From contig OX638152.1 in NCBI GenBank assembly GCA_951804945.1, forward strand, positions 48,112,001 to 48,176,000: a stretch of 64,000 nucleotides of DNA. Reading direction: 5' to 3'. The notes under the pieces were generated by a model. That model was not told the origin of the DNA, searched no databases, and saw nothing but the letters and a program-made list of their open reading frames with translations. The DNA comes from Podarcis cretensis (Eukaryota). Shown here piece by piece: positions 1 to 48,875 of the stretch (position 1 is the stretch's first letter; every line of letters starts with the position of its first letter). The position numbers and the translations under genes are program-made.

Positions 1-1996
1 CAATGCAACGTCCAACTGCTGTAACTGTCACTGCTCAATGGGAGGCCAGTCAGCCAGTCTATTTCATAAACTTTTAATCATGATAATGGAAAACAATTGT
101 CAGAAGCATCCTAGTGAATATTATTTGAGGCTGGAGGAGTTGGCAGCCATCTGTTCATTAATGTCTGCCATTGACACCTATCAAAAATATTACAAAGCTT
201 CAGGAGTGAAGACATTACAACTTTATTTCTTGTACAAATGGATTACTATCTTTGATAACTTTTAATTATTTGTTATTATGCCACATTTGTTTCGAGACAG
301 ACGATTAGCAACAAATATGCCTCCAGCTTCCCAAGATGTTCTAAAAGAAATTATTCTTTGTGTCATACTTCTGGAAAAAACCAAAAACTTATTGAAACAG
401 TTATCATGGTTAACAAGGAAATCATATTTTCACGATGTCAGAAAGCAGGAGGCTTGAAATCACCACAGATTCAGATTCAGAGGTCACAAGTCACTCATCT
501 GAGCTAGTCGCCCACCTTTGAAAGTGCCTGGCAACCTTGTTGCTGCCTCTGGGAATAGACAGCTGACATCTCCAGCTCCTGAATGTCACAGCCAGTAGAG
601 GGCAAGGGTAAACCAGGTAATAAGCTGCTATTTTTATTCCTCAAGGGAGACAGCTGAGGAACAACAATATTGAGGAATACAGTCCAAGACTCGTATGCCT
701 TGAACAAGCAAGAGACAAGCCCCAGATGAAGTCAGATCACAGCAACGTATAGAATCCAAGCAATTGTAAGCAAATAAGCTCAGAAACAGCAGCAAAGAGT
801 GCTTGAGAGCCAAACTGGTTGCATGTATTCCCCCCCCCCCCCCGTCAAACAATGTGCCAGTATATTATTGTTTTAAATGGGCGGGGGGAATGTGGTGAAG
901 GTTGCACTGGAAGGGATGGGAACATAGCAAGGGGAAGAAACTGTTTAATGATTTCCTTCCTCGCTATTTGTTAATTGAAACTGCTCCTCATGCTATATAA
1001 ATAGGAATCCTTTCAGCAATGGCAAAAAGAACCCTCTCCACCCCCTGCAGTACTATTAGGCTTAAAAAAACCCCTCACTTTTGGTGCCAAGGGGTGCACC
1101 AACTACAGCATGGAGGAGATGATTTTTGTTGTGTTGCAGTTGGGATGGTGGGGAAGGGTTAAACCTCCTCCCTCTGCATTCCAAATTAAAATTGACCCTG
1201 CACATACAATTAAACTTTTCAATACCACAGTGTGGTGGCTGTGAGTAGGTGTGATGCAATTAACATCACATGTCATTAGGCCCTAAGTAGAGGGCACTGG
1301 GAAACAGAGTGAAGTAGGTCCTTTCTCTACATACTGTACATGCACTTCTTTCACTTCTTAGTTTAATATTCCGCAATAGCCTTGTTTTTCATTTAAAAAA
1401 ACCTGCCATAAGAAAAACACACAACCATGGGCTCTTCCAGACGACTTGTTTATTGAGCGTTCATCCTTGTTTGTTTTCACAAAAGTTGTGCAGTTTTTTT
1501 AATTGTTTCTTTCCATGGAGGTTACAAGATATCATGTCAAACCATTGCTTTCCCACACTTCCCAATGGTTCCCCATTGCTTTCCTTACTGCAAAAGTCTG
1601 GGTTTGGGGCCCAAGTGGATTTTTGCCCAAGACCACTAAACCCACTTCAGTTGTGCAAGCTAAATTTGACAATGTATGATTGAAGGCCACCCTCAAAATA
1701 GCGGCAGTCTGGAAGCAGCTGTGTATCTAGTTTGGCTCTGGATCAGTACCTTTTTATTTTCTCAGCAGTACTTCCTAACCCCAGATTTAAAAACAACAAC
1801 TCCCTACTGTACTATTTTGATTGGAGAATTTTTTTTTTTTCCCGGATAAAACCCAACCCTTAAGGAATTCAAGAATACAAAGCATTTTGGATGGATACTG
1901 AAAATAGGTTGCACTTTGCATGCAAGTTTGGAGGATAGTTAATAATAAATGGGTTGAGTGTATATGCTACTTGTACACAAAATAGTTTTGCAAGAG

Positions 1997-2430
1997 AGGT
2001 TAAAAGTTCAAAGTTGAGCCTGAGTCTATACTGCCTTCACTGTTCTCTTTTAATTATCTGAGGTCAGGAAGTTAATAATACTAGAAATACCCACTAGAGA
2101 CCTCTTGCTCACTGTATGAACTTTAAACTTGTCTGCATTATTTTTTTTTTTGAAAGGGTAAAAAGTTCAGTGAAAACATGATGGTTTTCTCCTTTGGCCT
2201 ACACTAGTTCAACCTCAAGGGTTAAAAGTTTAACTGTAAAAGAGGAACCTTTGTTCGCTGAGGTAATTTCAAAAGTTCACTTATTAAAAGGTAAGATTTC
2301 AAATAAAAGGCAAAGTCCAGTGTGATTCTATTCCACAAGAATGAAAACCTTGTGACAAAGGAATACTCTTTAATCTGTTGTCACATCGGAATGACCTTCA
2401 CATTTTATTGTCTTTGTGTTTTGAACTTTG
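1997..2430. promoter_or_regulatory. Cluster of nuclear-receptor response elements (DR2/DR1/HNF4-type), candidate enhancer
   Basis: DR2-like at 1997-2010, 2156-2169, 2219-2232, 2266-2279; DR1-like at 2005-2017 and 2117-2129; AGGTCA at 2061; CAAAGTCCA at 2311-2319; TGACCT at 2392; TGAACTTTG at 2422-2430. Confidence 0.5.
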
Positions 2431-2573
2431 GAAAAGCAATGTCTCCTGTAAGCCAACTTTATAGGTTTAACGTCAACACACAGCACTGGATAATTCTTTA
2501 TATTTTACAAATAAATGCAATTTATGTTTACCACTTACACATTAAGTTCATTCCTGTATGCCTTGTGTTGCTG

Positions 2574-3252
2574 ATACCGCTTTCTTATAGATGGCAAGTA
2601 GTGATTCATAAAAATATGCTTCTTTCACACATTGGTAGATTACGCTAAACTGAACCATGGCTTAGTGCACATGTATAAACATGCAGGTTCCTAGGGAAGA
2701 GCTCACACCTGCTATGTTCTTCCTTGGTCCCTTTAGCTCAGCAGAGCACTGAGCTAAATAAACCCTGGCTATAAGTCATGGCTAAGAAGGAGAAAGCTTA
2801 ACCATGAGCCCGGGTTTGGAGAACAGGCCACCCTGAATCACTACTGAGCTAAAGGGCCAGGGAGGAGCAAAGCAGCTGTGATCTCCTGTCTGGGAACCTG
2901 CATGTTCATGCCTATGCATTAAGCCATGGTTCAGCTTAGCAAACTACAGTGGTACCTCAGGTTAAGAACTTAATTCGTTCTGGAGGTCCATTCTTAACCT
3001 GAAACTGTTCTTAACCTGAGGTACCACTTTAGCTTATGGGGCCTCCTGCTGCTGCTGCACTGCCGCCACGCAATTTCTGTTCTCATCCTGAAGCAAAGTT
3101 CTTAACCCAAGGTACTATTTCTGGGTTAGCGGAGTCTGTAACCTGAAGCATCTGTAACCTGAAGTGTCTGTAACCTGAGGTACCACCAATGTGCATGAAA
3201 GAAGCAGATTTTTTAAATAAATAACTACTTACCATCTATAAGAAAGTGGTAT
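2574..3252. mobile_element. Long palindromic MITE-like element interrupted by a second MITE
   Basis: ATACCGCTTTCTTATAGATGG (from 2574) pairs with CCATCTATAAGAAAGTGGTAT (to 3252); GCTAAACTGAACCATGGCTTA (2644-2664) pairs with TAAGCCATGGTTCAGCTTAGC (2920-2940). Confidence 0.75.
2947..3186. mobile_element. Tigger/pogo-like MITE
   Basis: TA followed by TIR CAGTGGTACCTCAGGTTA ... TAACCTGAGGTACCAC (last bases lost); internal TGTAACCTGAAG repeats; same family at 52320. Confidence 0.8.
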
Positions 3253-29120: not shown

Positions 29121-32100
29121 AACTAGATCATGAATGATCCAAAGCACTTTCACATTCATCAGAACTTTGTTATTTTGGAGCTATTCAGTTGCTTAATGTG
29201 TGCTTCATTCATTTAGATGTGGATGTTCTATTCACAGGGCTTCATTACTTCTTCCAAGGAAACAGGAACAAATCCCATGCTGGGAGTCACTATTCACTGC
29301 AGAATGTACATAGAATTAGACTCACAGTATCTTGTAGCCTGCATAGCAGGCAGGCAGTTGTGGCAGGGCGTTTTCCGTAGTAGTCCCACAACTATGGAAC
29401 TCAGTTTCTTCTGAGATTAGGCAAGCTTAATTACTAGTGAAGGACTCGCGGCTTCAGGATCTGGTGATGATTGCAGATTTAGAGATCTAAATGTGGAGGG
29501 AGGGGTTTTTAATGGGGGGAGTTTACAGGGAGGAGGGGAGACTTAACTCATCCCCTCCACAGCTGTAGCACCCTGAAATCACCCTTGTGATGCCAATTAG
29601 GCCTTCTTTTCAGCCTAATTTTCCCTGCAGGCCCCAGGGAAAACCTTTTGTGTCTCCAGGCACCACGTTGGTGACCCATGTGCTAGGCTATTGTTATTTC
29701 CTTCCCTTTTCTCATCCCTTCATCTTTCTTTGGTTTTTCTATTCCTGCTTTGCCAGAAGCAGAGATTTCTGAACTTGTTGATCTGCTATATTGGATTGGT
29801 AGGCATGTTTTTCTCTCTTTCAGACTTAATGCTAAAACACTAAGGATGCTTTTAAGCTAGATGGGCTAGAGGAAATATCAGCAGGAGGTAATGTAAGACA
29901 TGGCAATCAACCAACCAACCAGGCAGTCAGTCAACTGACCATCTTAGCTGTGAGTCCTGAGGGACTTGCCCCCTGCCTTGCAGGCCTTTTCCCACCTGGC
30001 TTGGGGTGGCAGGGCTCTGACTGACTCCAGCTACAAAACCTGCACCTGTTGAAGAGGCCAGAGACCATCTTGGTTGTCTCTTAGTGCAGACCCAGGTCAT
30101 CAAGCCTAAACTTCCACAGCCACTGCCCACCATGAAGCTCCATTGGCAGGTTGGGCAGCAACAGCAGCAGGTATGTTCTGTGCTTATGATGATATGTTAT
30201 TCTCTTCTTAATTATGCTGTTTTACATTTTATATCTGACATCATTGAGTAATGTTTTCTTTTGAAACATTTAAGATAATTTTTGCTGTTAACTTGGCTGT
30301 GTTAGATGTGGATTCTGTAGTAGACCTCCTTTGTAATGTTTTATTTTGAAATCTTTAAGATAATAGTTTAGTTTCCTGTTAATTATGCTGCTTTGAATGC
30401 ATACTTTATAGTTAACTTTCTCCAGTAATGCTTTATTCTGGATTGTTTCATTGGATATTTAAATGTGTTGTAAAGCCCTTTGAGATATTTTTCTTAAAAA
30501 TATGAAGTGGTATAGGAATGAAATAAATCACCACCACATTGCTTTATTATAGTTCTCATTCTTTATGCATATCAACCCTTGATTCCTTTATAGTTTACTC
30601 TTAGTGTTTGGCTTGCATTGGAGTGCTTGGATTGAATTTCTTTTCTGTACTTCTGGAGTCATTTGGGCCACTAATTTTTATTATCTACTGTTTCTATATT
30701 ATTTATCAATAAACTATTTAATTCATTTCAGTTATAATCTTTAGTCTATGGTCTTTCTGCTTTAATCCCTGGGGTGCAAATTTGAATGAAACTAGACCAA
30801 TTATCTCCAGCTAAGATACCAGCATGCTTACAGAAATGGTTACACTTTACATTTGAGACAATATCACCTCACTCCACAACGCAAGATTTCTGTTTTTTGG
30901 GGGCTGGGAGGGGAATAGTTGTGGCTGGGTGCCTTTCACTTCAGTGGTTAAACCAAATCTACTCTCAGTTCTGTTACTATATATACCAATGAATTGTAAC
31001 AGAAGTCTTTACCGTTCAAAACACTGAAGTCGGTATCAGCTAATCAAAAACAAACACTGCCTTTGGCTATTTTATTAAGCTTTCCTTGTGAAATGTTACT
31101 CTAGCTAGCATGAGAGCTAAAGTTTACTCCATTTATTATAATATTCGTAGTAATACTGTGCAGTCAAGTGCAAATGATCTTCCGCCTTCTCAATTAACAG
31201 AGTATTAAGACTTCCCTGAAGAGCAATAAACTCCTTTAATATGACAGGGGTACAAGTTCATTTATGCGCTTCTTCCAAGGTGCATTTCCAAATCTGTGTG
31301 AAATTCCCTAAGCTCCTTATTGATTGTCAAGGCGAATCAAGGCAGCTATGTTTTCCTCCGTTGGTGTTTAAATCATATCCCATAGGAGATAAACTAGGAG
31401 GAACTTTGTAGATACTTATTTAAAAATATTGTTGTTGCATCATTTCAGAAATGCTGTCTTGAGTGGCCTGTGAAGTAATATTCATGTATATCTGCTTCCC
31501 TAGCCACACATTTCTTCTCCTGTTCAGTATTTTACATAGCTACCCAACCAATGTGATGTGCCAAGAACAGAGTGTGCATGCTGGATCATCATATAAACAG
31601 ATCATCATATAAATGAACCACATGGTCACTTAAAACTAAAGGCTGTGCACGCTCATATTGCACCTGGAACTATGTGCTCCAGAGAGGTGTCTGCTTAGGA
31701 GGGGAAGGGGAAGAAAATTGCTCACTTGCAGACAGAAACGGGTTCCAATTCAAGATTTCAGTAATATGATGTGCAGTGCTCCTATTCAGGGCTTCAGCAG
31801 GAGTGTTTCCCCAGAATTCTGCATTCCATTCACCCTCTTCCAGTTTTCCATTCTTGCCCACTTCCAACAGTGAGCCAGTATTTCAAGGCCACTGAGCATA
31901 CTCTGTTCTCATCTGACTGTTTTGGGTTTTTTTCCCAGCCAAAAAGGGTTTTTTCCTCGATTCCTTTCTTCTTCTTTTGGTTCTTGTGCAGACCTCAAGG
32001 TTTCCCCGAGTCTGCTGATGCCTCATTCTATTGTGTGGGTCATGCTGTTTTGGCTATGTAAGGATCAATATGAGAGTTGTCACAACTTGTGACAATGTAT

Positions 32101-33558
32101 CTGTTTTTATTTTGCTTGAATTTATTTTTCTTTAACTTTTAATTTCAGAAACCTGGTTGTTATTAAAATATTTAGGTGGGAAGAAACACTCTTGAGCGTT
32201 TCGTATCAGTATATAGATTAGCCACAATTCAGTCTAGAATAAACCATGATTAAACCTCATTGATTTCCAAATCTGACTGAATTAAAATCACTGGTTTTTT
32301 TAAGTATAGGCAATGACCATTTTGTGTGTGTTCAGTATGTGCAAAAGCCAGAAGTGACTAGAGTGCAGAAAGGGCAAAAATGGTGTGATGACAGGACCTA
32401 GCAATCCCACAAGCCTTTGCAAGTTCAATCCCAGGAGGCCTTGCACCAACCTGTGAGGCCTATGCAGAGAAAGCGGTTTCAATGGTGTTCCCAATATACA
32501 CATTTCGCTTAAATGCACAGTGCCTAAGAACATAAACCCTGCGTTAATGGGGAGTTGTCTGTATGCAAAATTTGTGGCAAACTGTATCTTTATATGCTGG
32601 TACAATTTTTTCTGAGACCTGTTGTACAAGCGAATAGCTGAACTTGAGCGATGCATCTTGACCCCACTCTGGTAATCTACTGAATATCAATGGTGGTGCA
32701 TACCTTAAAGAAAGAACTGCACTGTAAATGGATACACTGTGTGTCTCTGCATTCAGAGACACACAACTTTACTCAGTTTTATTTTCATTCGGATAAAGCC
32801 TCCTGAGCCCAGAAACTGCTTTGTACAGCTCTGCTTCTCAAAATTGGGGTGCCTAGAATCTAGCTCAGTCAAACCATTTTATTTCTCTCTCTCTCTTTTT
32901 AATTTGGTGGTTTTGCAGAATAACTGCAAAAGTAGAACGCTGCAAAACAGAAGGAAAGCATCATCTTCTAGCCCCATATAATGATCACAAAGACTTGACC
33001 GTATGCATAGCAATGGTCACCTGAAGAACAAATGACACCTCTGACATCTACTTTTGGTGGCTATGAAGCAGCAGCAGATGATAAGAGGTCCACTCCAAGT
33101 ACTTTGAAGGGGAATCATGCTTGAATTAGAGGGCAGGAGCTGAATTTGTTGCAAATGGTGGCACAATTCATCTTGCTCATACTAATACAACTGCACTCAG
33201 AAGCACAGACTAGTAAGATGAAGGTAGATTAGCTGGTTGATTGAATAATCATAGGGCTAAAAGAACACAGGCCAAGCTCTTACTCTGGGTGGACTCTATG
33301 GGATTACATGGAATAAGTTGGACTGCTTGTGAGTTCCTGATCTAGGAGGAATGGGATGCGGTATGGATTGTATGTATAGCCTATACCTGGGACTTATGCA
33401 TGTGGCTACCACAAATATGCACAGCTGTAACTGAATAGAAATCGCTGATCTTCAAGCAAACACACACCATCAGGGGAACTTTTGAGCAAGCATTGTTAGC
33501 CTACTTACTGGCTGGACAATAAATAGATTAGACCTTCAAAGTCAATGCATTTTTGTCA

Positions 33559-33564
33559 TTTATT
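33559..33564 (-). terminator. Probable distal polyadenylation signal of NRIP1
   Basis: Minus strand GAATTTG-AATAAA-TGACAAAAATGC, followed downstream by U-rich TCTATTTATTGT and GU-rich GGTGTGTGTTTG. Confidence 0.6.
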
Positions 33565-35809
33565 CAAATTTTCTGTAGGAAGTAAACACTGAAAGAATTA
33601 AAAAAAACCTCACACTGCAGTATGTACAGTTTTGTGACATCACATGAATAAATCATTTCCTAATAAAAATGAGAACAGTTAAATTAGTGAAATTCCACAA
33701 TGAAAAGATTGCATAAACCCCAGAATTCTTGTGTGTGGTAATGAAACCAGTATTGCACATATCTAGCAATACCAGAATAGAATTGCAGTGGTTTGAAATG
33801 GAATAACAAAACGTTAATGTTTGCTTTTGGGGGTGGGGAGGTGCTCTTTACGTTTTAAAAAATGAAAAGGAAAAAAAGATTGACTTTCCCCCCAGACCCT
33901 TTCATTTGAAGCACATTCTTTCACAAAGCTAAAATACCACAGCAGAAGTCATGTCCAGAAACAGAATACAATTGTGTTTGACAAACATCTGGTTTGACTT
34001 AAGACATATTTGCCATTGCAGAGATGCATAGGGTCTCCCATGCATTTTTCATGCAGCAGGTAATTACAATATTAAATAAAACATTTTCTATACATTCTTC
34101 CAGACTTGCAAATGTATACATACATGCAAAAATTTTTAAACCTATGTGATCATATTTACATTTAATATATGGAATATACATAACAAAAAGATTAAAATGT
34201 TTTTTTCCTTTGCATTAGATAGAATACAAAATATGTATTTTTTCATTAAAGAAACCACTATTTACATCACTTTTTTAAAAATCAATTTCAACATGTATGT
34301 GTAACAAGTCTATATATTTACATATGTATACATATACATATATATAAAATATAACTTACCAGTTTACTCAACTAAAATGCAGCAGAGATAAACTGGCAAC
34401 ATTTTGTTGTCATTAATGACTGCTCTATCACATTTCACTGATGTTTTGCTGGGGGAAACTTAAATCATTTATTTCAAAAAAATGTAAATTAAGCACTTTA
34501 TAATCTATTTTTTAAAAATATATAGCTTAAGAAGTAAATACATGGCTGATTTCCCTTTCAAACTGTTGTGTTCTATCTTCAGAGATGAACTGCTCTTACA
34601 GAAATGGGTTTTCAAGGTAATCCTAAACATGCTCAGAGGTTTTACTGAATTCCATCAGATTTCCTTTCAGGTAAGCAGGCATAGGATTCCAAATGTGCCA
34701 CCCAATCCTACCCATGTCTATTTAGATGCAAGACCCACTGTGCTCAATTGGGTTTACTTCTAAGTGAGGAAAGGATTGCTGCTTTAAGTCATTTTCTCTA
34801 GTAAAATATAGTGCCCATGTTTTTCTGAAGTTCTAATTTGTGTTTGCCTTTACAGAATGAAATGAGAGAAATGTTCCGACACAGGTCCATATTTTTCCTC
34901 TTTCATACTATGTGGGAAGACAGCGAATTATTTTTTCTTCTGTCCTTATGATGAAACTCTTAATTTCATTCATCCTTTCAACTGTACCAATACAGGTCTC
35001 TAGTTGCAACTACAAAGTTGCAGGTCCATGAATTTAAATCTGCCTCCACTCATGTAAAATGGGGGCTGGGCCTCCACTTTGAACGAAAAGGGGTTAGTGG
35101 TTGAGAAACCCAGAACTCCCCCCCTCCCTTTAGTTTTTCCTCTTCTTCCTCTTCCAGGTAGACTGATGGATTAAAGTCCTGCTGAAAGAAGCCTTTGGAG
35201 AACAGCAGGGGGCTAAGTGTAGCTGTACCTGCATGTTGCCATCAGTCCCCTATTTTACACACAATTGGGGCAGATCAAAGTCTCAGGTTTAAGCACATAG
35301 CTATGCATCATAGTGTATAAATTGATCCTGTGTCAGATATTACACTGATGTATACCTGGCAGGTGTGTGCTTTGTATTCAGAACTATGTAACATGGTTAC
35401 AAGCAAAGCATGGTCTTGCCCCACCTTGTTTCCTAAATTACATTTTACTGGTTAAGGCAGGTAATTACATATCTAAAATCTTTTTGAAATAATGTGTTCT
35501 ACCCCGTTATTGAGATTTGTGGTGTCAATGAAATACATTACTGAGATGAAATGTACCAACTGAACTGCTGTCATTATAAGGTTCACTATGGGGAAAATTA
35601 ATCTGCAATGTGTATTTGTCTATAAATACAGGTAAGCTGAGCTCTTAAAATATTTGTGCAAATAACTCCCAAGAGGAATATGTAAACTGTTAACTATCAG
35701 AATTGTCATCTCTAGCATCTGTGATGAAAAGCCCACCATCCACTAGAGTATCTTCCTAATTTAGAATATAGAAATGCAGTCTCTATGATTATACCAAGAT
35801 AGTATAAGA

Positions 35810-35921
35810 CAAAGGCAACTTATGGCCCACCAGATGTTGTCCCAAAAGCATGGCGAATAGTCAGGGGCGACAGGATCTGTAGTCCAATAACTCCTGGAGG
35901 GCCACAGGTTGTCAGTCCCTG
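35810..35921. mobile_element. Degenerate hAT MITE inside the inferred NRIP1 3' UTR
   Basis: TGGCCCACCAGATGTTG ... TGTAGTCCAATAACTCCTGGAGGGCCACAGGTT, homologous to the 13601/42617 family. Confidence 0.6.
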
Positions 35922-36109
35922 ATATAAGCTAACAGTTGTTTGTTATGAAATTAAAGTACACCTGAAGGCGCCATTGGCAACAGGAACAGAATGACTAAAT
36001 GGTGGGATACAACAGAGCTTTAGCCAATTTTTTCATGTCAATTTGCACTGGAATTTTCCTATACATTTGTATTTCCTCCAGGGCTATGAATCTACTTGGT
36101 CTGTCATTC

Positions 36110-36113
<4 letters not shown>

Positions 36114-36175
<62 letters not shown>
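36114..36175. repeat. Compound microsatellite (TC)17(AC)14 in the 3' UTR
   Basis: Seen directly. Confidence 0.95.
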
Positions 36176-36177
<2 letters not shown>

Positions 36178-38049
36178 TTTAAAATATTAGTATTAATTAT
36201 ATAATGTAAATAATAATAATAAAGCTGTGATACTCTGTAGACTAACAGCTGGAACAAATATTTCTAATGCATTTCTCTACCAGGGCAAAGAGAAAAGGTG
36301 TTCAGCGATAAAATAAAGTAGTTTGAATTATATAGCTTTACAACTGATGCCGAGCTTATGGTGGAAGGTAAAACAAGATCTGGTTGAAAATATTTATCTT
36401 CTTGTATGTAAAAGCTTTATCCAGTCAGCAGTAATATATATGCTTTCACCATAATTAAAATCACTCATTGAGTTGAGATGCACTGAACTTGTCTGATTTT
36501 TTTTTCTAGGACATTGATAAAAAAAAATCCCCTCAAAATCAATGAAAGACTTCAACACATTTGAACTGTGCTGCAATAAACTTTTTAGCTCAGAAGAGTG
36601 TAATTTAAAAAAAAAACATATAGTAAATTATACAGAAAAGTGAAGTAATCAAAACCCAACTTAACAAACAGTGCAATTCTATACATGCCACTTAGAAGTA
36701 GGTACCACAGAAATCAAGGGGACTTATTCCCATGGGTGTATAAGGGTTTTGGGGGGGCAGGGACTTGGGCCCATTAGCCAAATTAGGCTTTGCAGCCATA
36801 CCCACTCATCAACATGGCTCATGGGTGGGGGAATCCTGTTGTACAACCCTAGTGTATAGGATCACAGCTTAACTGATCTTCTGAGTTAGACTGCTACATG
36901 TTTAAAAGCACTGCAGTAGACACAGGTTTTACTGAAACTAAAATTCAGTACAAACTCAAAATATCCTACTTAGGTAAATTTTGTCTAAGAAGTTGGAGAG
37001 CGATAAACAGAACTTTTAAAAACTGCCATTCCGTTCTTTCAATTTACAATACTTCATTTCCCTTAATTCTGGTTTATTAAATATTAATTAATTTACCACA
37101 AACGATCTTTTCACTGACCACTAATATCAATACATATGCCACCTTCTTACCAAAAAGCCTTCTAAACTTGTCAGCATTTTCAATACTTCAGTAGTGCTCA
37201 TACTGTAAAGCAAGACTGAGCTGATGGGAAAAGATACCAACATGATGCGTTACCTATTCTTTTTTCTCTCTTAAACAAAATGCAACATTGATTCTGGAAA
37301 ATCCAAAGTTCACTAATGTGTTCCTTCACCAAGCATAAATGGGGAGAAACTGAAAGTGGGTGAGGGACATATTTTGCTACCAGGATTTTGCAAATCTAGC
37401 TTTATAAACTCATAGCCCAGGTTTTATATTTATTTCAGCTGAGTGTCCAGGGAAGGCATTCTCCAAATGCAACTAGAGAAAATACATAAGATATTTCTTG
37501 TGGTTCTCCCAGATATTAAAATGCAATCAAAAGCCATTAGGAAGCACCCAAAGGTTTCATTTCTATACATTTCTCCAGTTAACACTGAGGATGATTACTA
37601 ATATGCTAGAGTAGACTAATGCCTTGGTCTTGGTGTTCCATTTACAAAAAAGGGGTTCTTCACATTTCATACATGTATGAAAACACAAAGTTATACTGCC
37701 CCAGTGCTTAAGAGTTTCAAAAAGGAAAATATATCATGCGACAGGATGAAATGCTGCAAAACACTCTGCCAGCAGTGTCAGCTTTATGCATTGCATGTGT
37801 AATACTAGTAGTTCCAAATAAGTACCTTTTTATAATACATAACCCAGAAGAATTGCTGCTACCTCTGTATTTTCCCCCTACACTGGCTCAGATATTTGTA
37901 AATAATTCCACCCATGTGGTTCAGCTTCCTGCCATGTTTTTAACTGGGACCTGCTGGTGAAGGGAAGGGAATAAATCCTGAGGCGCCAGGCAAAAACTTT
38001 TATATATAACCAGGCCTTTAGCTATCTGTGGCCTTTTAGAATTGGGATG

Positions 38050-38180
38050 TCTTTTAATTTATGTGGTGATTTTTGTTTGTAAGTTGCTTTGGGTTGCCCT
38101 AGGCAAGATAAAGCGACTGACCAAATTCAAGAAATAATAATAAAAAGTAATAATAAATTTTAAAAATAAGAATAAATCAT
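38050..38180 (+). mobile_element. L2-like 3' tail, antisense within the NRIP1 3' UTR
   Basis: TGTAAGTTGCTTTGGG...GATAAAGCGACT...AAATAATAATAAA resembles squamate L2 termini. Confidence 0.5.
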
Positions 38181-38552
38181 ATACATGACATCCAAGGTCC
38201 ACAGGAAGATCATCTGCCATCATTTGTATGATTTGGAAACATATCAGGAAGCTGAACCCCATGGTTTTAAACCTTTGCACAAACACCAGCAGTCAGTTTT
38301 CTTATTAATTTTGATGTAACTAACATCTTGTGATGATAGGTGCCTGGTGACAAATTTCCTGTAAAGCAAAAATAAAAATAAAAAATTGCTACATGTATTT
38401 TAAATATCAGCAGAAAAAATTCATCAAACAAAACCATGTTTCAGTTATACCATGCTTTTCTCAAATCATGCTAGATTTATACAACACTTTTTTTTTAAAA
38501 AAAAAAGCAAAGATTTAAACCTGACTGTAAACACTTCTAATATGATTATAAT

Positions 38553-41500
38553 TTACTCTGGTTCTTTTTTAATTGTTAATACTTTGTCTAAGAGTCCGTA
38601 TACATTTCCATTCACATTGTGTTGAAGGGACACTTTATTACTTGAATGACTACTGTAAGTATTTCTTACATTATGAAATGGCATTTTACATTCTGCAACA
38701 GGCGATAACTCTTTCTTAAATGTGACAACAGATGAATGTTCTGTAAATGACGTATCACTCCAAACATCTTTGCCATGTGCTTCCTGAATATTAATGGAAT
38801 TCCCACCTTTCTGTAACATGTAATATAATATAGGATTAGTTTTGGTCAGTCTTGGGGAATCTCGCTCATGTTCATTTTTGTCCGTATCTGTGATGACCCA
38901 TTTTATAGGCCCCCTTTCTCTAGGTACATGGCAAACACTAAACTGGTCACATTCAGGTTTTGATGAAACTATGCCTCCCAAATGTTCAGTGAAGGGAGAA
39001 CTGGCAGGACTCCTCATTGCAACTGAATACTGAAATGTTCGGTGATCCAAACAATTGGTTTGCTGTCCAGGATTTCCCATTAGCGTATGTACTGAAGGGA
39101 CACTGAATTCAGTTTTGCTGTTATTTGTGAGGTTATTTTTTGTTCCTTTCTTTTTGCCATCAGTTACTGCTGAATTATTCCTATGCTGAGGCACGTCTTT
39201 TTCACAATTTTCTGACAGAAGCAGTTGTTTCAACACGTTAAATCCTTTGCTTTCTCTAGACCAAGTCCTATTTTCACTTTCATTATTTGAACCGTGACCT
39301 GAAGGGTATTTTAATTCAACATCAGTTCTGCTAAATTTCAATTCTTTCTGGTTGAGTCCAGGACCATACAAGGCATCTGCAGAAGACTTATGATTGTTTG
39401 CAGCATCAGATATGTTACCTTTCTTACCTTTTAGCAATTTCAAATGACCTTCTGAAGGTTCAGGATGCAGCTTCCTCTTCTTTGGGACTGTGCTGGGGCT
39501 TTTTGATTCCACAAAAGTCTGTTCCGCATTTCTGTGGCTCCTGTCCAGTTCATCTGCAGAATAGCTATCTTGACTCTGCCTCAGCAATCGACTTAGTAGG
39601 CCATTCTTTGAAAAAGAAAAGCCTTGAGGTGAGAGAGGGTTGGGTTTAAATTCCTCTGATGCTGGAGAAGTAGCTGAATGTCTCTCTAATGAATGAGCTA
39701 TTCCATGATATTTCTTGCTAACACTTTCCCTTACTTGCTGTGCATTCGGATTCTGAAGGGCATTTGATTCCTCAGAAGGTTCAGCTTTTATTTTTACAGT
39801 CAATATTTGTTCATTCAAAGCCTTTTCTGTCGGGTCTTGTAAACTCTCTTCTTTTGAATGCATCCTCTCCTTTGTTTCAGTCATACCTTTGTTGGAGGTT
39901 CCCAGAAGCAGTTGGAGGACAGTGCGTCTTTCAAGTAGATTCTGGATTTCTGAACTGGGAAATCTTTGTTCAGCTGGTAGAGGCTGACTACTGACAATTT
40001 TGTTTTCTTCAAGTGCACCTGATGCATTAGTAATCAGGGAGCTATTTAATCCATCTATCAATCCAACTGGTTTCTCTGGGTTTAGAGTCATCATTTGTTT
40101 GCCTGTCTGCCTTTGCTCATCTATTGACATGGAAGACTGCATCCCACATTGAGCTAAGTTTTGCAAAAGTTTACTTGCACTAAAAGATGGATTTGTTTGT
40201 ACAGTTTCATTTCTGCTCTGTTTAGTTCCTTGAATTTCTTTGTGTACTGTAAGATCTATCAAGTGTTTAGAAGCTGGATTAATTAGTCTTTCAGGCTGTA
40301 TGATGCAAGTGTATGGTGGTGAATTATGTTTGACCAATAAAGGAGAATGGTGTGAAAGGTTGATGGGGGAATCCGCTTGTGTAGAATTTAGCAGAGGAGG
40401 AGTGTTTATTGGAGTAATTTGATTTGTACTAGAGCAATCTGTCATAGGAGTTCTGTTACCCATTGCTAAATTAAATTTTGTCACATCAGCTGAAACTAAT
40501 GCACTCTCAGTTTCTGTGATTTTCTCAACATTGTCTTCATTTTTATGGCCAAGTAATAACTGAAGCAAAGTTACTTTCTGATGTGGATTGAGTTTTGCAT
40601 TTTTAGAGGGACTTTTCTCTTCTACATTTTCTAGACAAGGAACTTTTGAATCCCAGTTGTGAAGTATGGATTGGGTTAAATTGTCTAGAGAAGCTGGCTG
40701 CGCAGAATCTGGTTTATTTGTTTTCTGTTTGAAAGATAAGTCTATAGGAAGACAATTAGAATGAGAACTTTCATCATCACTGCTGTCATCTTCTGTAAAA
40801 CTTGGATTGTTGTCAGAATACTCATCAACCGTAGTTGGTGTACTACTCTCCTCAAAAATACTGGACCTTTCATTCTGTTCATATCCTTTAGTCTGCTTAG
40901 TAGCACTGTGATTTTTAAGGAGATGTAAAAGTAAACTACTGTTGGTAGGTGGTTTCATATGATTTTTTTCCATCGTTGTTTTGTAGCCTATGCTTTTAGG
41001 AGATGAATGAATTACCCCCATAGGACTCTGAAAATGTGTCATATTGCTTTTGTTGGTTATTGATTTGGTTGAAGATCTTACCTGACCATTAGGATGGCTT
41101 TCAATTCCTTTTGACAGTTTGAAATGGCCAACATCTTTCGGAACACTTTCTTTTAATCTTGCCATAGCAGCAAGTCTCTCACTTGCAATTTGACTTGCAT
41201 TTTGTGCTTTCAGAGCATGTTCTCTGGAGTACTGCTGCAAGTGCGCTTCACTTGAAAGAAGCAAGGCTAGCTGACTACAAGCCACACTGGGTTTAGGAGA
41301 CGTAGCAGGACTAGACCTTTTTTCCACCATGCTTGCAACAGCTTGTAATCTTGCAGCACAAGACAACGACTCACTCATCACCTTGGAACCACTTTGTCCT
41401 GTATGCGAAGATTCTATAAACCGATCTTTAACCAGATTAGCTGTTAGCTCAGGCAGACCAGTCTCCAGCTTTTCATCTTTTGCTTTGCTCTTCTTCAGGA

Positions 41501-42062
41501 GAGTCTTCAAGTGACTGGATGCAACACCATAGCACCTTAAGTCTTTCTCAACTTGCAGAGAATCGTGGCTAAGGGAATACCCTTGCTCCTTGAGGCTCTG
41601 CCTAATCTGTTGTGACAAAGCAACACTCTGCAGCCTAGAGCTGAATGACTGAAGCAAAGAGGCCAGTAATGTGCTATCCTGTTTGCCTTTAGGCACATTT
41701 TCAACCATGCCAGCTAACAAAGCTTCTTTTTCCCCATTTAAATCCACAATAGAATCAGACAAGCGTCTTCTCTTTGCTGCATTCCAGTCTTCAGAAGACT
41801 GCAATAGCCTTGCCTTTTTGTGATGCAGCATGCCAGAACCTTGATATGTATGTGTGTTAGCAACTGAACCATCTCTCTGACAGCTGGGAGATGTATTTCC
41901 AGAAACCCTGAAGTTCTGATCTTCTGCACCAGGCCCAACAGGCTTTTTGTCAACCGCAGAACCCGAACCTCCTGCTGCTTGATGCATTAGTAATCCCTCT
42001 AGGTAAGTTAGAACAACGGAATCCTGGTGCATCTCAGAGACAAGCTCTTCTCCATGAGTCAT
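38553..42062 (-). CDS. NRIP1: Nuclear receptor-interacting protein 1 (RIP140), intronless CDS, 1169 aa
   Basis: Begins MTHGEELVSEMHQDSVVLTYLEGLLMHQ and ends LTIKKEPE. Nine LxxLL boxes (LEGLL, LASLL, LKTLL, LALLL, LLHLL, LQLLL x2, LSRLL, LKQLL) plus LYYML; CtBP motifs PIDLS and PINLS; SUMO motifs IKAE and IKKE. Start set at the ATG at 42062, not the TTG at 42083; an in-frame TGA lies 13 codons upstream. Confidence 0.98.
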   Translation of the reverse strand: MTHGEELVSEMHQDSVVLTYLEGLLMHQAAGGSGSAVDKKPVGPGAEDQNFRVSGNTSPSCQRDGSVANTHTYQGSGMLHHKKARLLQSSEDWNAAKRRRLSDSIVDLNGEKEALLAGMVENVPKGKQDSTLLASLLQSFSSRLQSVALSQQIRQSLKEQGYSLSHDSLQVEKDLRCYGVASSHLKTLLKKSKAKDEKLETGLPELTANLVKDRFIESSHTGQSGSKVMSESLSCAARLQAVASMVEKRSSPATSPKPSVACSQLALLLSSEAHLQQYSREHALKAQNASQIASERLAAMARLKESVPKDVGHFKLSKGIESHPNGQVRSSTKSITNKSNMTHFQSPMGVIHSSPKSIGYKTTMEKNHMKPPTNSSLLLHLLKNHSATKQTKGYEQNERSSIFEESSTPTTVDEYSDNNPSFTEDDSSDDESSHSNCLPIDLSFKQKTNKPDSAQPASLDNLTQSILHNWDSKVPCLENVEEKSPSKNAKLNPHQKVTLLQLLLGHKNEDNVEKITETESALVSADVTKFNLAMGNRTPMTDCSSTNQITPINTPPLLNSTQADSPINLSHHSPLLVKHNSPPYTCIIQPERLINPASKHLIDLTVHKEIQGTKQSRNETVQTNPSFSASKLLQNLAQCGMQSSMSIDEQRQTGKQMMTLNPEKPVGLIDGLNSSLITNASGALEENKIVSSQPLPAEQRFPSSEIQNLLERRTVLQLLLGTSNKGMTETKERMHSKEESLQDPTEKALNEQILTVKIKAEPSEESNALQNPNAQQVRESVSKKYHGIAHSLERHSATSPASEEFKPNPLSPQGFSFSKNGLLSRLLRQSQDSYSADELDRSHRNAEQTFVESKSPSTVPKKRKLHPEPSEGHLKLLKGKKGNISDAANNHKSSADALYGPGLNQKELKFSRTDVELKYPSGHGSNNESENRTWSRESKGFNVLKQLLLSENCEKDVPQHRNNSAVTDGKKKGTKNNLTNNSKTEFSVPSVHTLMGNPGQQTNCLDHRTFQYSVAMRSPASSPFTEHLGGIVSSKPECDQFSVCHVPRERGPIKWVITDTDKNEHERDSPRLTKTNPILYYMLQKGGNSINIQEAHGKDVWSDTSFTEHSSVVTFKKELSPVAECKMPFHNVRNTYSSHSSNKVSLQHNVNGNVYGLLDKVLTIKKEPE

Positions 42063-42414
42063 GTTCAATACAAGTATCCACAAAGGCTCCCTTTTTATTC
42101 ACTTTAAGGACTAACTTGTTATTGGTGAACTGAGATTCAGATTAATAAGCAAGTCTACTGTTGCCTACAAAATGTGATGCAGAACAGGTGCAGTAGTCCT
42201 TGATTGATTCTCTCATTAAGTTTTTGTGGAAAACTAAAAGTTCCATTTTTATGCATCTCTGCTGCGGTATGCACATGCATTTATGAAGGTGATCCAGATT
42301 GACTTATTTAAAACATGGTTCCAGAGGAAACATATTCATATTCTTCTAGTAGATTTCTGCAGCTGAGGTTTTCTTTTTTCAGTCTTTTCTCATCATATTG
42401 CACATGCTTAATTC
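42063..42414 (-). other. NRIP1: 5' UTR portion of the NRIP1 coding exon (acceptor AG at 42416-42415)
   Basis: Minus strand gctgattttttttccttttttgcttcatag|GAATTAAGC is a strong polypyrimidine tract plus AG, 352 nt upstream of the ATG. Confidence 0.7.
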
Positions 42415-42616
42415 CTATGAAGCAAAAAAGGAAAAAAAATCAGCAAAAGTATTTTGAAGGTACCAAAATTGTATTCAAGCAAAAACAGAAGCACATCACA
42501 CAGCTCTGTAGTCTTTTGATCAGCTAATTCTTCCTGAACAAACCAGCACCTTGCACTTTTGTTTCCTTATAAAGTGTTGCTTGAGAGCCCCTCTTCACAC
42601 AAATGATAGGTTACAG

Positions 42617-42752: not shown

Positions 42753-43621
42753 GATTACAGTTAATAGAATGTCCCAATACAGGCATTGAAAAGAGGGGGA
42801 GGGCACAATGGGCTGCACAGAGTCAGGGACAAACTGAAGCACCTTGGCTGTCCTGTCCCCTGCCCCAACTTGAAGCCACGGAATAATGGCAGAAACTGGA
42901 AAGCAAGCACTTGATGTTGGTGTCTGCCTTCCTTAACAAATACATGATTCAGATAGAGTTTACTGTGATACTGGTTATCATCATCATCTCAGAAAGAGGG
43001 ACACCCCCTCTCCCTTTGGTATTCACTACTATACATGGTATTGTGTGTCACCATTTGGAAATGATCATGAAAGAGAAGAACACGGAGGCTTTTATGGAGC
43101 CAGCAAACTGCTAAATGTACCCTGTCTTCCAGAATAACAGGCTAAAGATATATCGGCATGGATAGAACAGCAAAGGATTTGGGCCACAGTCTAGAAAGGC
43201 TACTTTCCACGTATGACTATGTGCAGATTTTAATAACATTTTTTTGTACAGCCAATCAATTGGCTAGATTTATATGGAAAGGTGGGCTGCCGCTCCAGCC
43301 AAGTGAGTGGGCACATAAAAAAACCCAAAACTGACTGCTGACTTTGTTGCTCTGGACTTTTATGTGCCAATAAAGTTTTTTAAAAAGGGAAATGGTAAGC
43401 ATTAAAAAATTCAAGACAAATATTTATTTCCTAACTTAAAAATGATGTAATAACTTTAAAACAAGTCTATTAACAAATCTCTGTCATAAGAGCCAGTGCC
43501 TAATGAATGAAGCATTAATCTAATGAGAATTAGCTAAAAATCAAAGAAAATAAACATCAAAATTAGTGTCAGTTATACAAGACCCACCCTATACCTGTGA
43601 CTGTGAACTGTTTTAACCGCT

Positions 43622-43635
43622 TTTATTATTATTAT

Positions 43636-43666
<31 letters not shown>
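43622..43666. repeat. (TTA)n/(ATA)n microsatellite
   Basis: Seen directly; partly self-complementary. Confidence 0.9.
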
Positions 43667-43668
43667 TA

Positions 43669-44241
43669 CCGTATTTTTCGCCCTATAGGACGCACCGTCC
43701 CATACGGCGCACCTAGTTTTTTGTGGGGGAAATAAAGGGGGAAAATTTATTTCCCCCCCAGGCACGGGGCTGGGGAAGCCCGAGCTTCCCCCGACCCCAG
43801 CCCCCAGAGCAGGCAACTCTCTGCAAGCCGCGGAACCCCAGCGCAGGGCTCCCGCGCCTTGCGGAGAGCTACCTGAAGCCCCGGCGCGACTGCTCAGTGC
43901 GCCGGGGCTATGGGATAAGAGGCAGCTTTGCGCAAGCCGGGGGAGCCCTTCCGCGGCTTGCGCACAGCTACCCAAAGCCCCGGCGCGACTGCTTAGCGCG
44001 CCGGTGCTTCGGGGTGCAGGCAGCTCTGTGCAAGCCGGGGGAGCCCAGGGGGAACTCCCGCGGGCTCCCAAGGCTTGCGGATAGCTTCCTGAAGCCTGGA
44101 GAGGGAGAGGGGTCAGTGCGCACCGACCCCTCTCGCTCTCCAGGCTTCAGCGAAAGCCTGCATTCGCCCCATAGGACGCACACACATTTTCCCTTCATTT
44201 TCGGAGGGGGAAAAGTGCGTCCTATAGGGCGAAAAATACGG
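43669..44241. mobile_element. Tc1/mariner-superfamily (Tc2/pogo-like) non-autonomous element, CpG-rich
   Basis: Perfect 27-bp TIR CCGTATTTTTCGCCCTATAGGACGCAC; TA on both sides (43667-43668, 44242-44243). Confidence 0.93.
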
Positions 44242-47200
44242 TACTTTTATTATTTATAATTTTAACACTGTTGTACCATGAACTGAAACCAGCTGGTGAA
44301 GGGTGGGTGTTAATAATAAATATTATACAAACTCTGATAACAAAAAATACCGCCTCCAGGGTAACTAAACTCTGGATACAATAGATATGAATGAAATATT
44401 TATGAAATAATTAGAATCCAGCTATTTGAGTATAAACAAATGTGTAGCAATGTATCATCAAATTGCAGCCTTTGATCTTTGACCCTTTGCATTATCTGCC
44501 ACTTTTATGTCAACTTCTAGTTACTCTGTTTAAGCTTCTCCTACCTTCATCTGCCCCAATTCTCCTTCTCAGGGCCTAATTTGATTTCTGCCTTCTGTAG
44601 TCCCCACCATAGTCAACACCAGCTGCTCCCTCTGCCTCAAACAGATAGTGGGTCAGTCCACATGTGATACCAAAGCATGAATTGTTACAGGAACAAGCCC
44701 TGTGTTCATGTGCTGCTTTCCCCTCACATTTAGTAAGAATAGAATAAGGCTTAAAAATATGTTGTTTAGCTTTCAGAAATGAGGTGGCTAGTTACAAGTC
44801 CTATTTTTAAAAAATTAGTAACAAAAACTCATTAAACCGACTTTTGTAGAGTTACTAGATTTTAATATGGAGAAATGTCATTGTTCTACAAAATAAATTT
44901 GTCACTGAATGTCTATAAGTACTCCGAAAGTGATTCATGTGTTATGAACTGAGGCTGGTATGTGTGCGTAACTGTTCACACAAATGATTTGCTTGCGTGA
45001 TGCGTATTCATAAAGGAGGTGACTCATGAAAGACATGGTGGGAACTTCCATGAGCAGAGAAAATGAGTATGTCAGCTTTTTAGAAGTTACACTTCAAATA
45101 CTGGCTTGTGGAAACAAGGAGTTGTGTCTTTCCTCTCCCCAAATCTGTTCCAGGGAGTTCTCCAATGAATTGGAGCAGACTTTGAGGGTGCACAGGGCGC
45201 TGTAGGGGAAAAGAGAGCAAGAAGATCTGCTAGGCAAGTGAAGGTACGGTGTGTGAGCGGAACAGCTTCTGCACGTAGTCAAGCTGTTTCAAAACGAATG
45301 AAATTATAAGGACATGTTTCTACAGAATTCTTTTATGAGTTAAGAGTTCTACTAAACAGTGAAAATCTTACCAATATTATACTAAATCCACTACATAAAT
45401 TGCCATACGAGTTAGTGATTTGTATGTGCGGTCTACTATTTTATGTTTGCTAACATGTCAAAAAAGGGGGGGGGGAATCAGTGATAGAGATCTGAATTCA
45501 GGACATCAAGAATTCACGGTAGTCTTGCAGCAGTTTCTCTGACCTCGTGTGGAGGATTTTTCATTAGTATGTTTTGATAATACATAAAAGAGATATAAAT
45601 AAAAACTTTTAAGATTGTGATGTTTATGACATTAGAACAGCATAATTACCAGTCAACAACTAATATTTGGAAATTTGAAAGTGCTGAGATGATATGGGCC
45701 TAGAATATACAACTGTGGTAACACTACTGTCCTTTACTACAGTAAATAACTTCCACAGTATTTTCACACACCCCTTTGCCACCACAATATAGGTATCCTT
45801 GATGCATATCTGGTTCTCAATCAAGTGATCCTGAGATCTCATCCTCTGGGTTGAACCTAAGGCAAATAAACCCTTCTGCCCTCTTACTAAATATCTTTTT
45901 TAATTGGGAGAGGACTAGGCTGCATAAGCACTGTTTTCCTCACGTATCTCTGGATTGGGGGCAGTAATGCAGTACAGGAAGAAAAAGGTTATTTAGCTTA
46001 AACATTCACTCCAAGGACACACACTCTTAAGTAATTTATCAAATTTATGTTGATAAAATGTCAGCAATTTTGAGCAAAAGACATGATAGATAATCAGAAA
46101 GTTGTGGCCATAGCTCTTAGTAGAATGTTTTATATATGTCTTCATGAATGCTACGGAAAGAAAGTAATTGCAAAATAGCAAGAAAGGGCTATTTATCTTT
46201 GCTACTTGTTCTATTAATGATAGTTGTTGAAATGAATCTTACTACCTAAGTAGTGGAAATCAATACTGACACATCTGCAAATATCAGGTTTCCCATTCAA
46301 ATCATTCTCCCAAGAATAAACATTGTACTCAGTATGAGAACTTCACAACCAATTAATTTGCAGCTTACATGACTAATAATAGTGTTATTAATTGGGGGGT
46401 GGGTGCAGACTCCCCATAATCCTAACTTTAATAGAAGGCAGATTTTAGCCAGTATTTGAGTATGGAGGGAAGATGCTAGGCCAGTGAAAAATACAGGCTG
46501 AACCAGTCCTCCTATTCAGAAAATGGTTGCTAGTGATGCCCTTAAGAGACCCAAGTACTGGGCCATTAAGAACAACTGACCATGCAGATGCTGTCCTCCC
46601 TGCCAACAAAGAAGTGCAACAGAAGAACTGAGAGAGGGAGGTTTCCAGTGGTAACGCGGTATGATGTCACCACAGGAAAAAAGGTATCCTTTTAAAACAG
46701 GTTTTGCAGCAGGTGTTTTGGGGAAGAAGAATGAAAGGCACTGGTTGGAGGAGGCTGCACGCAGAGCCTGGAGAGCCTGGTCCCCTTCTGCTTTGGATCC
46801 AAACATGCCAAAGCTATGAGAGAAGCAACAAGAGACCCCCTTGCAGTGTGTTGTTCTGCACTTCCTCCATCAAAACTCAGGTTATAAATGTGTGTGCAAA
46901 GTAAACCACATTTCATAAAGACAGGGCAGTTTCTGCTGCACTTCATTCCCAAGGAACACAAATCCTTGTTAGGGGCCCAAGACCCCTGGGATCTTGTTAC
47001 CGCTCAGCAGAGATTGGGGTGGCCTGTAACACTAGGAATAAAATGGGAAATTGTTTTTAACCATATTTCCTTTCATAACATGCTTAAATCAGACGTAGCT
47101 TAGGACTGCACATTCTAGCCAAAACCAACATTCAAAACAGGGTATGTGGATTTAGGCTAATTTAACTTGCCGTAACAACTGCTTTCTGCTGTTCAAGGCT

Positions 47201-48875
47201 GTTATGGTTCCCATATTTTGCACTTCAATGGAAGCAACTGGTGGGGGCGAGAATAGTAGCCAAGTGTTAAGTGTCACAGGGAATGATATGAGGAACACAT
47301 TACAGAGAGTTTATATGTGTACATATGAGGGAGAAAAACACTGTGTGAATTATTGAGAAATTAGCAGCCTGCTCTTCATATTAGGAAAATGTAACTATAA
47401 GATTAAGATTATGATTTAACGTTAGTATCAGTATAACATTCAAATTCAACTTTAAGTCATCTCTAGTCTTAATTATTGCATTATAATTGCATTATAATGT
47501 GTTGCATATGAGGCCTTCTTAGAAATGGATTCCTTGCCTATGGAATGGGAGGCCTGCCTGGTGCTGACATTAACATCTTTTCAGCAACAGACAAAGCTTT
47601 TTCTGTTTTTCTAGGTATTTGGTTGTTAAGATCTTTTGTATTTGGGTGGACATTTTAGCTGGTTTGAAAAGTGAAGCTTTACTAAAACATACACAATTCA
47701 TGACACCACAGAAATCTGTTTTGAAATATTGATGGAAAACATCTAGTTATTAAAATGGACCACTTTAAATTATATATGAATCAAAATTAATATTTTTTTA
47801 GAATTAGGAAATGTATTTTGACATTATTGTGTTTCAGTACATTCCAAAGTCTCAGTCGATGCTTGAACAAAGTTAATTACATGATCATTTAACTTCAGTA
47901 CTGAATTATTAATAGAAGAGTAAAAATGTAGATAAGAATGCATAAATAAATGTATCAAACTCAGTTATAAAAATGAATTTGAGAGCTGGAGAAGACTTGA
48001 TCACAAAGTATATGCGTGCACACACCCACACCCATTATTGACAATACACATTTTGGGAAATATTCTAAATCACTATAAATAATTGTACTCTTCTTAAAAA
48101 TATTTTATCATTACTGGAAAAAGAACAAAATTAATAACTGTTTTGAACTTTTAAATCCTATTGAACAATTATTAAAGTTGCAGTAAAATCCTATGGTTTG
48201 TTTACTGCTAAAATAGATTTGACATAGGCATGGTACAAGTTCAAGGTCACTGATCAGGAAATAAGATTACAAATAGGACTGATGTAACAGCTGGCTTCTG
48301 ATCAAAGCTTCAGGGATTTTAATACACTTACCAGAAAATACACTGCATTTCCTTATATAGTGTAGTTTTTAAGGTATTATAAACAAATCCATGTATTTAT
48401 TTTCTGTAGCACAGCATTCAAAACACAACATCAAACCCAGAGAAAACTAGTCTATGTTAATGAAAGAAGTGTTATTTTCTGTCACAAGCTATTGTCTGAA
48501 TAAAGTAGGTAACCTATTGATTCATTCCAACCTACAGTTCTATTGTTAATCCAAAGCAGCCTGTGCATAAGTGCAAAGCAGTTTTGTGTGACCACAGGAT
48601 GCTGCATTCCTATTATGACACAGCTCAGTGTTGAATAGGTTCCCCACCACCTTTTAAAACAAAGATCTCTGACATGGTTTGTATGGGTCCAGTGGCATCA
48701 TTGAGATCTTCCCCTGGTGCCCATGAAGCCTCTGAGTTTTTGCACCAACTACCCCATGATGATGGGGTGATTATATTCTCCCCCACTTCCCCAAAAAAGG
48801 AGGTTTGAAGAGTGACATTGCTTCCAATTTCTTCTTTCAGATCTTTGGGCTAAAATCAACAAGTCCCGCTAGACG

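Follow-up and report, generated by a model that had tools for sequence, protein, structure and literature searches.

The analyzed window covers 64 kb of a 1.5-Gb genome, and some of the positions given below run beyond it in window coordinates. Its only long ORF with an ATG start (38553-42062, minus strand, 1169 aa) is the coding exon of NRIP1 (RIP140). A CpG island at ~113.3-114.5 kb was read as the main NRIP1 promoter, and a smaller CpG-rich patch is located at 43.5-44.2 kb, beside the coding exon. The corresponding 43501-44500 interval is a possible internal promoter; it precedes the coding exon by 1.5-2 kb, and two DR1 sites with one mismatch are found close by at 44272 and 44473. A stretch of 12 kb without match to the sampled background (30404-42605) spans the coding exon, the 3' UTR and several kb beyond, and possibly represents a long constrained 3' region of NRIP1. 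The cluster of nuclear receptor sites that is described here lies on the 3' side of NRIP1, 36 kb from the stop codon, 112 kb from the CpG island and ~42 kb from the CpG-rich patch. Its placement 31 kb downstream of NRIP1 in an earlier, sequence-only reading is consistent with a presumed gene 3' end close to the AATAAA at 33564.

On the other side of the cluster, SPIDER-domain exons mark SAMSN1, and the cluster is situated 5' of this gene. With an MLKRK start that we take to be the SAMSN1 N-terminus, the distance from the cluster to the SAMSN1 start codon is 118 kb, about equal to the 112 kb that separate it from the NRIP1 promoter island. A Pfam scan covered 149 frames outside repeats with a length of 85 aa or more, so that short exons would escape it, and revealed no further protein-coding gene between NRIP1 and SAMSN1; the sole frame that passed the Pfam cut-off encodes a reverse transcriptase. 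A nearer hidden gene was rejected on the basis of these frames and of a methyltransferase family search, which gave no match on the contig. A GC-rich retro-element with long frames and an RVT_1 domain (E 5.6e-14), unmatched in the sampled background, is located ~32-39 kb left of the window (L015:1000-8300).

The cluster is single-copy, with one genome-wide match in a search that skips very common words. BLAST of positions 1-2937 against ~1.06 Mb of other genomic DNA returned no match, which agrees with the earlier statement that no recognizable transposon is present. Together with the unique reciprocal match to a second animal (see below), these results rule out a transposon origin. Local tandem duplication was also rejected as the source of the repeats, as merely one 14-nt family with three copies was detected and the copies are conserved separately. 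The repeat closest to the element is a high-copy short interspersed repeat at 2938-3207 with up to 40 matches in ~1 Mb.

The claim that no comparable density of receptor sites exists elsewhere in the window was upheld by shuffled controls, sampled loci and the wider neighborhood. Within the 64 kb, the 450-bp window with the highest count was compared with 200 block-wise dinucleotide shuffles: six DR1/2/5 elements and ten DR0-8 elements with at most one mismatch were counted, numbers reached by none of the 200 shuffles in either case, and three DR2 elements at the same threshold were reached by 1/200. Weaker results were obtained for DR2 elements with at most two mismatches (five; 13/200) and for perfect half-sites (eight; 10/200). 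Real DNA served as a second background, with overlapping elements merged, and comprised 80 sampled 10-kb loci and the remainder of the 264-kb neighborhood. Here, the cluster holds four independent DR1/2/5 sites, compared to a best count of two in all 80 sampled loci and of two in the rest of the 264 kb, and none of the 80 loci matched the cluster on any of nine density measures. The recurring word AAAGTTCA (pattern AAAG[GT]TCA) is present in five exact copies, with 0.052 expected per 450 bp. For RGKTWAAAAGTTYA, a pattern that was chosen post hoc, the count over the entire 1.5 Gb is 384 (control 761), and a 236-bp segment of the cluster accounts for three of these copies. The density of the cluster is not a product of chance.

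For the identification of an orthologue, an exact 21-base seed (the 1997-2017 composite) was scanned across metagenome contigs, yielding 23 matches. In 22 of these, the seed alone is shared; the remaining contig (L112), which we interpret as DNA from the host, a distant vertebrate, can be aligned to window positions 1934-2441 with 78% identity and finds a unique reciprocal match in this genome and nothing else. The core alignment reaches a score of 449, compared to at most 32 for random stretches, and the flanks are at random level, with equally good random stretches in 93/200 cases on the left and 172/200 on the right. Judging from this alignment to one candidate orthologue, the 1934-2441 interval is a real conserved non-coding element under selection. 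Its features, and the coding exon of the likely target gene, are as follows:

1934..2441, no strand assigned: conserved non-coding element and candidate nuclear receptor enhancer, with 78% identity to L112 over 518 columns (E 1e-114)
1938..1945, plus strand: GTTAATAA, HNF1-half-site-like, alternatively a weak AGTTAA half-site; identical 8-mer at the matching L112 position
1997..2017, plus strand: composite of three half-sites, a DR2 AGGTTA-aa-AGTTCA whose 3' half is common to a DR1 AGTTCA-a-AGTTGA; invariant run 1995-2018
2047..2081, plus strand: 35-bp invariant block in the L112 alignment with AGGTCA at 2061 (DR3 with one mismatch or DR2 with two mismatches)
Inside 2047..2081: GATA-like string at 2054-2059 (minus strand), ETS-like AGGAAG at 2066 and a second GTTAATAA at 2071, from consensus strings
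2095..2111, no strand assigned: 17-bp invariant block in the alignment without assigned motif, apart from a weak minus-strand half-site AGGTCT
2117..2129, minus strand: invariant DR1 AGTTTA-a-AGTTCA (run 2113-2132)
2156..2169, plus strand: invariant DR2 GGGTAA-aa-AGTTCA (run 2153-2178)
2208..2256, plus strand: 49-bp invariant block in the alignment with DR2 GGGTTA-aa-AGTTTA (2219-2232) and SOX/TCF-like CTTTGTT (2249-2255)
2266..2293, plus strand: DR2 ATTTCA-aa-AGTTCA of this genome only; the orthologue reads ATTTAC-ag-AGTTCA and keeps the AGTTCA half (2274) and the next 14 bases
2311..2319, plus strand: CAAAGTCCA, an HNF4-specific motif as defined in the partial text of PMC3384313; the first base is changed in the orthologue (TAAAGTCCA)
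2392..2400, minus strand: TGAAGGTCA, ERR-type extended half-site, unconserved; the orthologue has TGACTG where TGACCT stands
2419..2432, minus strand: invariant block in the alignment with CAAAGTTCA (HNF4/DR1-type 3' half; the 2422 site)
38553..42062, minus strand: NRIP1 (RIP140) coding exon with four NRIP1_repr Pfam domains, the likely target gene

All ten motifs quoted in the sequence-only reading are present at the coordinates given there (10/10), but several of those counted as separate elements overlap or can be read in two ways, as exemplified by the DR2 at 1997, which is also a DR1 at 1998. The HNF1-, GATA-, ETS-, SOX/TCF-like and ERR-type labels are taken here as consensus-based names of the respective strings. 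If DR1, DR2 and DR5 arrangements of RGKTCA with at most one mismatch are considered, the element contains DR2 sites at 1997 and 2156 and DR1 sites at 2005 and 2117, all of which are kept in the orthologue; at this threshold no DR5 was found in the element of this genome, and it has neither a conserved DR5 nor a perfect DR2. Every AA-spaced DR2 doubles as a DR1 reading, and for the three conserved AA-spaced sites the DR2 fit is slightly better (1, 1 and 2 mismatches vs 1, 2 and 2 for DR1). Simple consensus patterns detected two HNF1 half-sites (0.34 expected) and two FOX sites (1.8 expected); a full HNF1 palindrome is absent from the element, and these patterns revealed no FOXA/CEBP partner enrichment. 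An estrogen-type site was not found, as the 1900-2600 interval lacks an IR3 with at most two mismatches. The array is not homotypic, as had been assumed, but mixed, consisting of DR2, DR1 and HNF4-type sites and of long invariant blocks. As the invariant runs of 35 and 49 bp reach well past the half-sites, factors other than nuclear receptors matter as well.

The comparison with L112 distinguishes between members of the array. The DR2 sites at 1997, 2156 and 2219, the DR1 sites at 2005 and 2117, the element at 2061 and the site at 2422 are invariant, the identity of positions 1997-2017 being given by construction since this 21-mer served as the search seed. The DR2 at 2266, a half-site at 2206 and the TGACCT at 2392 are lost; consequently, the 2266 and 2392 sites, both of which had been counted as array members, cannot be retained as conserved ones, and the HNF4-type site has changed from CAAAGTCCA to TAAAGTCCA. 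With the seed excluded, the motif positions named in the sequence-only reading are identical in 79/84 cases, compared to 251/329 elsewhere in the element (Fisher p 1.1e-4), and in a circular-shift control this value was reached by 2/412 shifts and by 0/383 shifts of at least 15 bp. For a rule-defined motif set the excess is marginal (59/65 vs 271/348 identical; reached by 19/383 shifts). Conservation of the half-sites in one distant orthologue is therefore strong for the originally chosen set and marginal for the rule-defined one.

A further regularity concerns the weakness of the sites. In the conserved direct repeats, all seven non-consensus bases (7/7) are found at position 5 of the half-site, where 19% of background mismatches fall, and two of these seven deviations lie inside the search seed. 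The sole site that deviates elsewhere (ATTTCA in the 2266 DR2) is the unconserved one. Retention of the five position-5 bases outside the seed is not significant at a local identity of ~80%. In the visible part of a table of conserved RAREs, position 5 is also the commonest deviation, accounting for 6 of 12 one-mismatch half-sites (PMC7259794, Table 2). As far as the sequence goes, the pattern fits tolerated receptor sites.

A non-coding element of ~500 bases that is packed with receptor-type motifs and kept nearly letter for letter in a second animal is likely to be an enhancer. On balance, we favor as the most likely reading that the 1934-2441 interval would act as a multi-receptor distal enhancer of NRIP1 with an RAR:RXR component. 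In this model, RAR:RXR would occupy the three conserved DR2 sites plus the DR1 sites, and other DR1-binding nuclear receptors would dock there too, raising NRIP1 transcription, while liver, gut or kidney input would come from the HNF4- and HNF1-type sites at its margins. The element would contact the NRIP1 promoter island through a loop of ~112 kb, or the CpG-rich patch through one of ~42 kb, and the resulting RIP140 would damp liganded receptors, as in the known negative-feedback loop. RAR/RXR-bound regions commonly contain several and composite repeats (partial text of PMC4446430), and the heterodimers bind many spacings and half-sites; a preference for A in the spacer is reported for DR1 but not for DR2-DR5 (partial text of PMC6555819). 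In vivo, AGTTCA as 3' half is reported to be preferred by HNF4α rather than RXRα (partial text of PMC3384313). This half-site preference and the spacer-A preference of DR1 count against a pure RAR:RXR DR2 reading, and in mouse cells more than 150,000 good matches to DR2/DR5 stay unoccupied (partial text of PMC3091300).

The same two preferences lend some weight to an unlikely alternative, namely a tissue-specific, ligand-independent enhancer on which HNF4, along with HNF1, COUP-TF or RXR homodimers, would use the AAAGTTCA/AAAGTCCA sites and the DR2 spacing would be incidental. Five exact copies of AAAGTTCA, one CAAAGTCCA and two conserved GTTAATAA are in keeping with this arrangement, and HNF4α, RXRα and COUP-TF2 are described to lean on the 3' half of DR1 (partial text of PMC3384313). 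However, the three AA-spaced sites have no C/T-AAAG core and agree slightly better with DR2 than with DR1, the HNF4-specific 9-mer CAAAGTCCA loses its first base in the orthologue, and no full HNF1 palindrome accompanies the half-sites.

Assignment of the element to NRIP1 builds on published responses to retinoic acid (RA). The view of NRIP1 as an RA-induced feedback gene, on which the sequence-only reading relied, is documented, and NRIP1 responds directly to RA as part of a negative-feedback loop (partial texts of PMC2034384, PMC3091300 and PMC3261707). In mouse F9 cells, Nrip1 is induced by RA with values of 2.5-3.1, read as log2 fold change (PMC4446430 supplement), and in zebrafish endoderm RA raises nrip1a 3.9-fold and BMS493 lowers it 6.9-fold (PMC8608873). 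Samsn1 is absent from the searched F9 RA supplement tables in which Nrip1 occurs (PMC4446430). NRIP1 is the better candidate target, because it is a direct RA target and is induced in F9 cells and zebrafish, with Samsn1 missing from the F9 supplements.

Receptor binding 3' of the gene has been recorded in both species. Among the mouse F9 RAR/RXR peaks listed, at least one lies between 76.20 and 76.30 Mb (chr16:76,225,315-76,225,815, mm9), 62 kb 3' of Nrip1 (PMC4446430); the interval was searched by peak ends, and further peaks may exist. The coverage of this peak is 14, 92, 131 and 37 for RAR and 31, 118, 135 and 76 for RXR (PMC4446430, supplementary file 6) at time points taken as 0, 2, 24 and 48 h, and it belongs to the late-peaking cluster G. 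Around zebrafish nrip1a there are eight RARaa peaks, the strongest of which, 27 kb 3' of nrip1a, falls within an intron of a different RA-induced gene and does not appear in the authors' conserved-element table (PMC8608873). These 3' peaks provide modest support, since they are matched by position only and many peaks exist per locus.

It is considerably less probable that a receptor-bound enhancer at this place has SAMSN1 or an unannotated transcript, rather than NRIP1, as its main target. The element is situated 5' of SAMSN1 at a distance similar to that from the NRIP1 promoter island, in human cells a different element of the locus makes contact with both genes and increases their expression (partial text of PMC12271514), and the zebrafish 3' peaks were assigned to the neighboring RA-induced gene (PMC8608873), but the searched F9 tables name Nrip1 and not Samsn1, and the scan of frames of 85 aa or more found no other protein-coding gene in between. 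Very unlikely is a silencer or damper on which COUP-TF, TR2/TR4 or RAR:RXR would repress NRIP1 or a neighbor through the DR1/DR2 sites. Repressive COUP-TF2 shares DR1 sites (partial text of PMC3384313) and a conserved DR2 at Fgf8 is an RA silencer (visible part of the PMC7259794 table); in the systems examined, however, RA induces and does not repress NRIP1. Least credible of all is that the block is a conserved exon, belonging to an unannotated RNA that is either coding or structured and non-coding, or that the AT-rich cluster arose by chance. The long invariant runs do exceed the needs of single motifs, but a coding exon was rejected because both sequences have 6-16 stops in each frame and the alignment contains indels of 1, 1, 5, 2 and 8 nt, a structured RNA on account of folding z values of -1.29 and -0.49 and the lack of an Rfam match, and density and conservation are far above chance.

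The enhancer reading can be extended to a more specific and doubtful scenario, in which the element would be a feedback enhancer long conserved on the 3' side of NRIP1 and the orthologue of the late-filling RAR/RXR peak 62 kb behind mouse Nrip1. Its many sites would be weak on purpose, with each conserved deviation at half-site position 5, so that the corepressor would stay off unless retinoid levels are high or prolonged. If true, the element would be a threshold-and-delay device for receptor self-limitation.

Receptor-type sites also occur elsewhere at the locus. A second receptor cluster is located at ~139,990-140,130 (L009:5987-6129), on the 5' side of the NRIP1 promoter island at a distance of 26 kb. 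It combines the perfect DR1 GGTTCA-a-AGTTCA with two one-mismatch sites, a DR5 and a DR1, and with CAAAGTGCA, and it shares the AAAGTTCA word with the main element. Within NRIP1 introns, a perfect DR0 AGTTCA-AGGTCA is part of a triple at 48232-48255, a DR1 (49803) and a DR5 (49963) are located at 49803-49979, and a perfect DR2 AGGTCA-ca-GGTTCA is found at ~73591 (L002). A perfect DR5 GGGTCA-gtcca-AGGTCA at ~162367 (L011), ~48 kb 5' of the promoter island, belongs to the next-densest DR0-8 cluster.

RIP140 limits retinoid, estrogen and metabolic receptor signaling, and its own induction is a recognized feedback loop. Two distal elements, GH21J015439 and the rs1882961 element, are situated on the 5' side of NRIP1. 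They show that conserved elements more than 100 kb from the promoter drive NRIP1, as is proposed here, but they are not reported as direct-repeat arrays (partial texts of PMC9335095 and PMC12271514). In the RA-to-RIP140 loop (partial text of PMC2034384, citing Kerley 2001), retinoid receptors induce their own corepressor through the same gene as proposed here; the reported receptor sites, however, are at promoters (partial text of PMC9335095), whereas the candidate element lies 36 kb behind the stop codon. A site conserved from fish to mammals at nrip1a/Nrip1 (zebrafish 15:29,050,353; mouse chr16:76,319,589 and 76,321,604) is likewise non-coding, RAR-bound there and located at the same gene (PMC8608873, Table S6). 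As it is intragenic and 5' of the coding exon, it is not the same element, and the intronic sites at 48232-48255 and 49803-49979 are candidate counterparts of it. The mouse peak at chr16:76,225,315-76,225,815 shares the position 3' of Nrip1 and the 500-bp scale, is increased by RA (cluster G) and is a candidate orthologue by position, although its distance from the gene end is 62 kb and that of the element ~31 kb (PMC4446430).

In the full-text literature, with most subscription papers and genome-browser annotations, where the block or ChIP peaks may be catalogued, outside its scope, no account of an element 3' of NRIP1 was found, and six 14-mers from the element, searched on both strands, gave no match there. 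The element is likely a new example of the known feedback loop. The concept is unchanged by it, as distal RARE enhancers at RA-feedback genes are already well known. With described NRIP1 receptor sites located in promoter and intron, a compact, conserved multi-site element on the 3' side offers a precise target for testing the loop and bears on whether weak-site arrays set the threshold and timing of feedback. Close parallels are the conserved RARE enhancers of Dhrs3, Rarb, Hoxa1, Meis1/2, Nr2f1/2 and Tshz1 in the visible part of PMC7259794, Table 2, a paper whose main text does not mention Nrip1. These enhancers are conserved to reptile or bird and likewise contain DR1/DR2 sites with at most one mismatch, often at position 5. 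They carry RA-regulated histone marks and mostly one to three sites, many of them DR5, whereas the element 3' of NRIP1 combines at least five conserved repeats, none of them perfect, with no conserved DR5.
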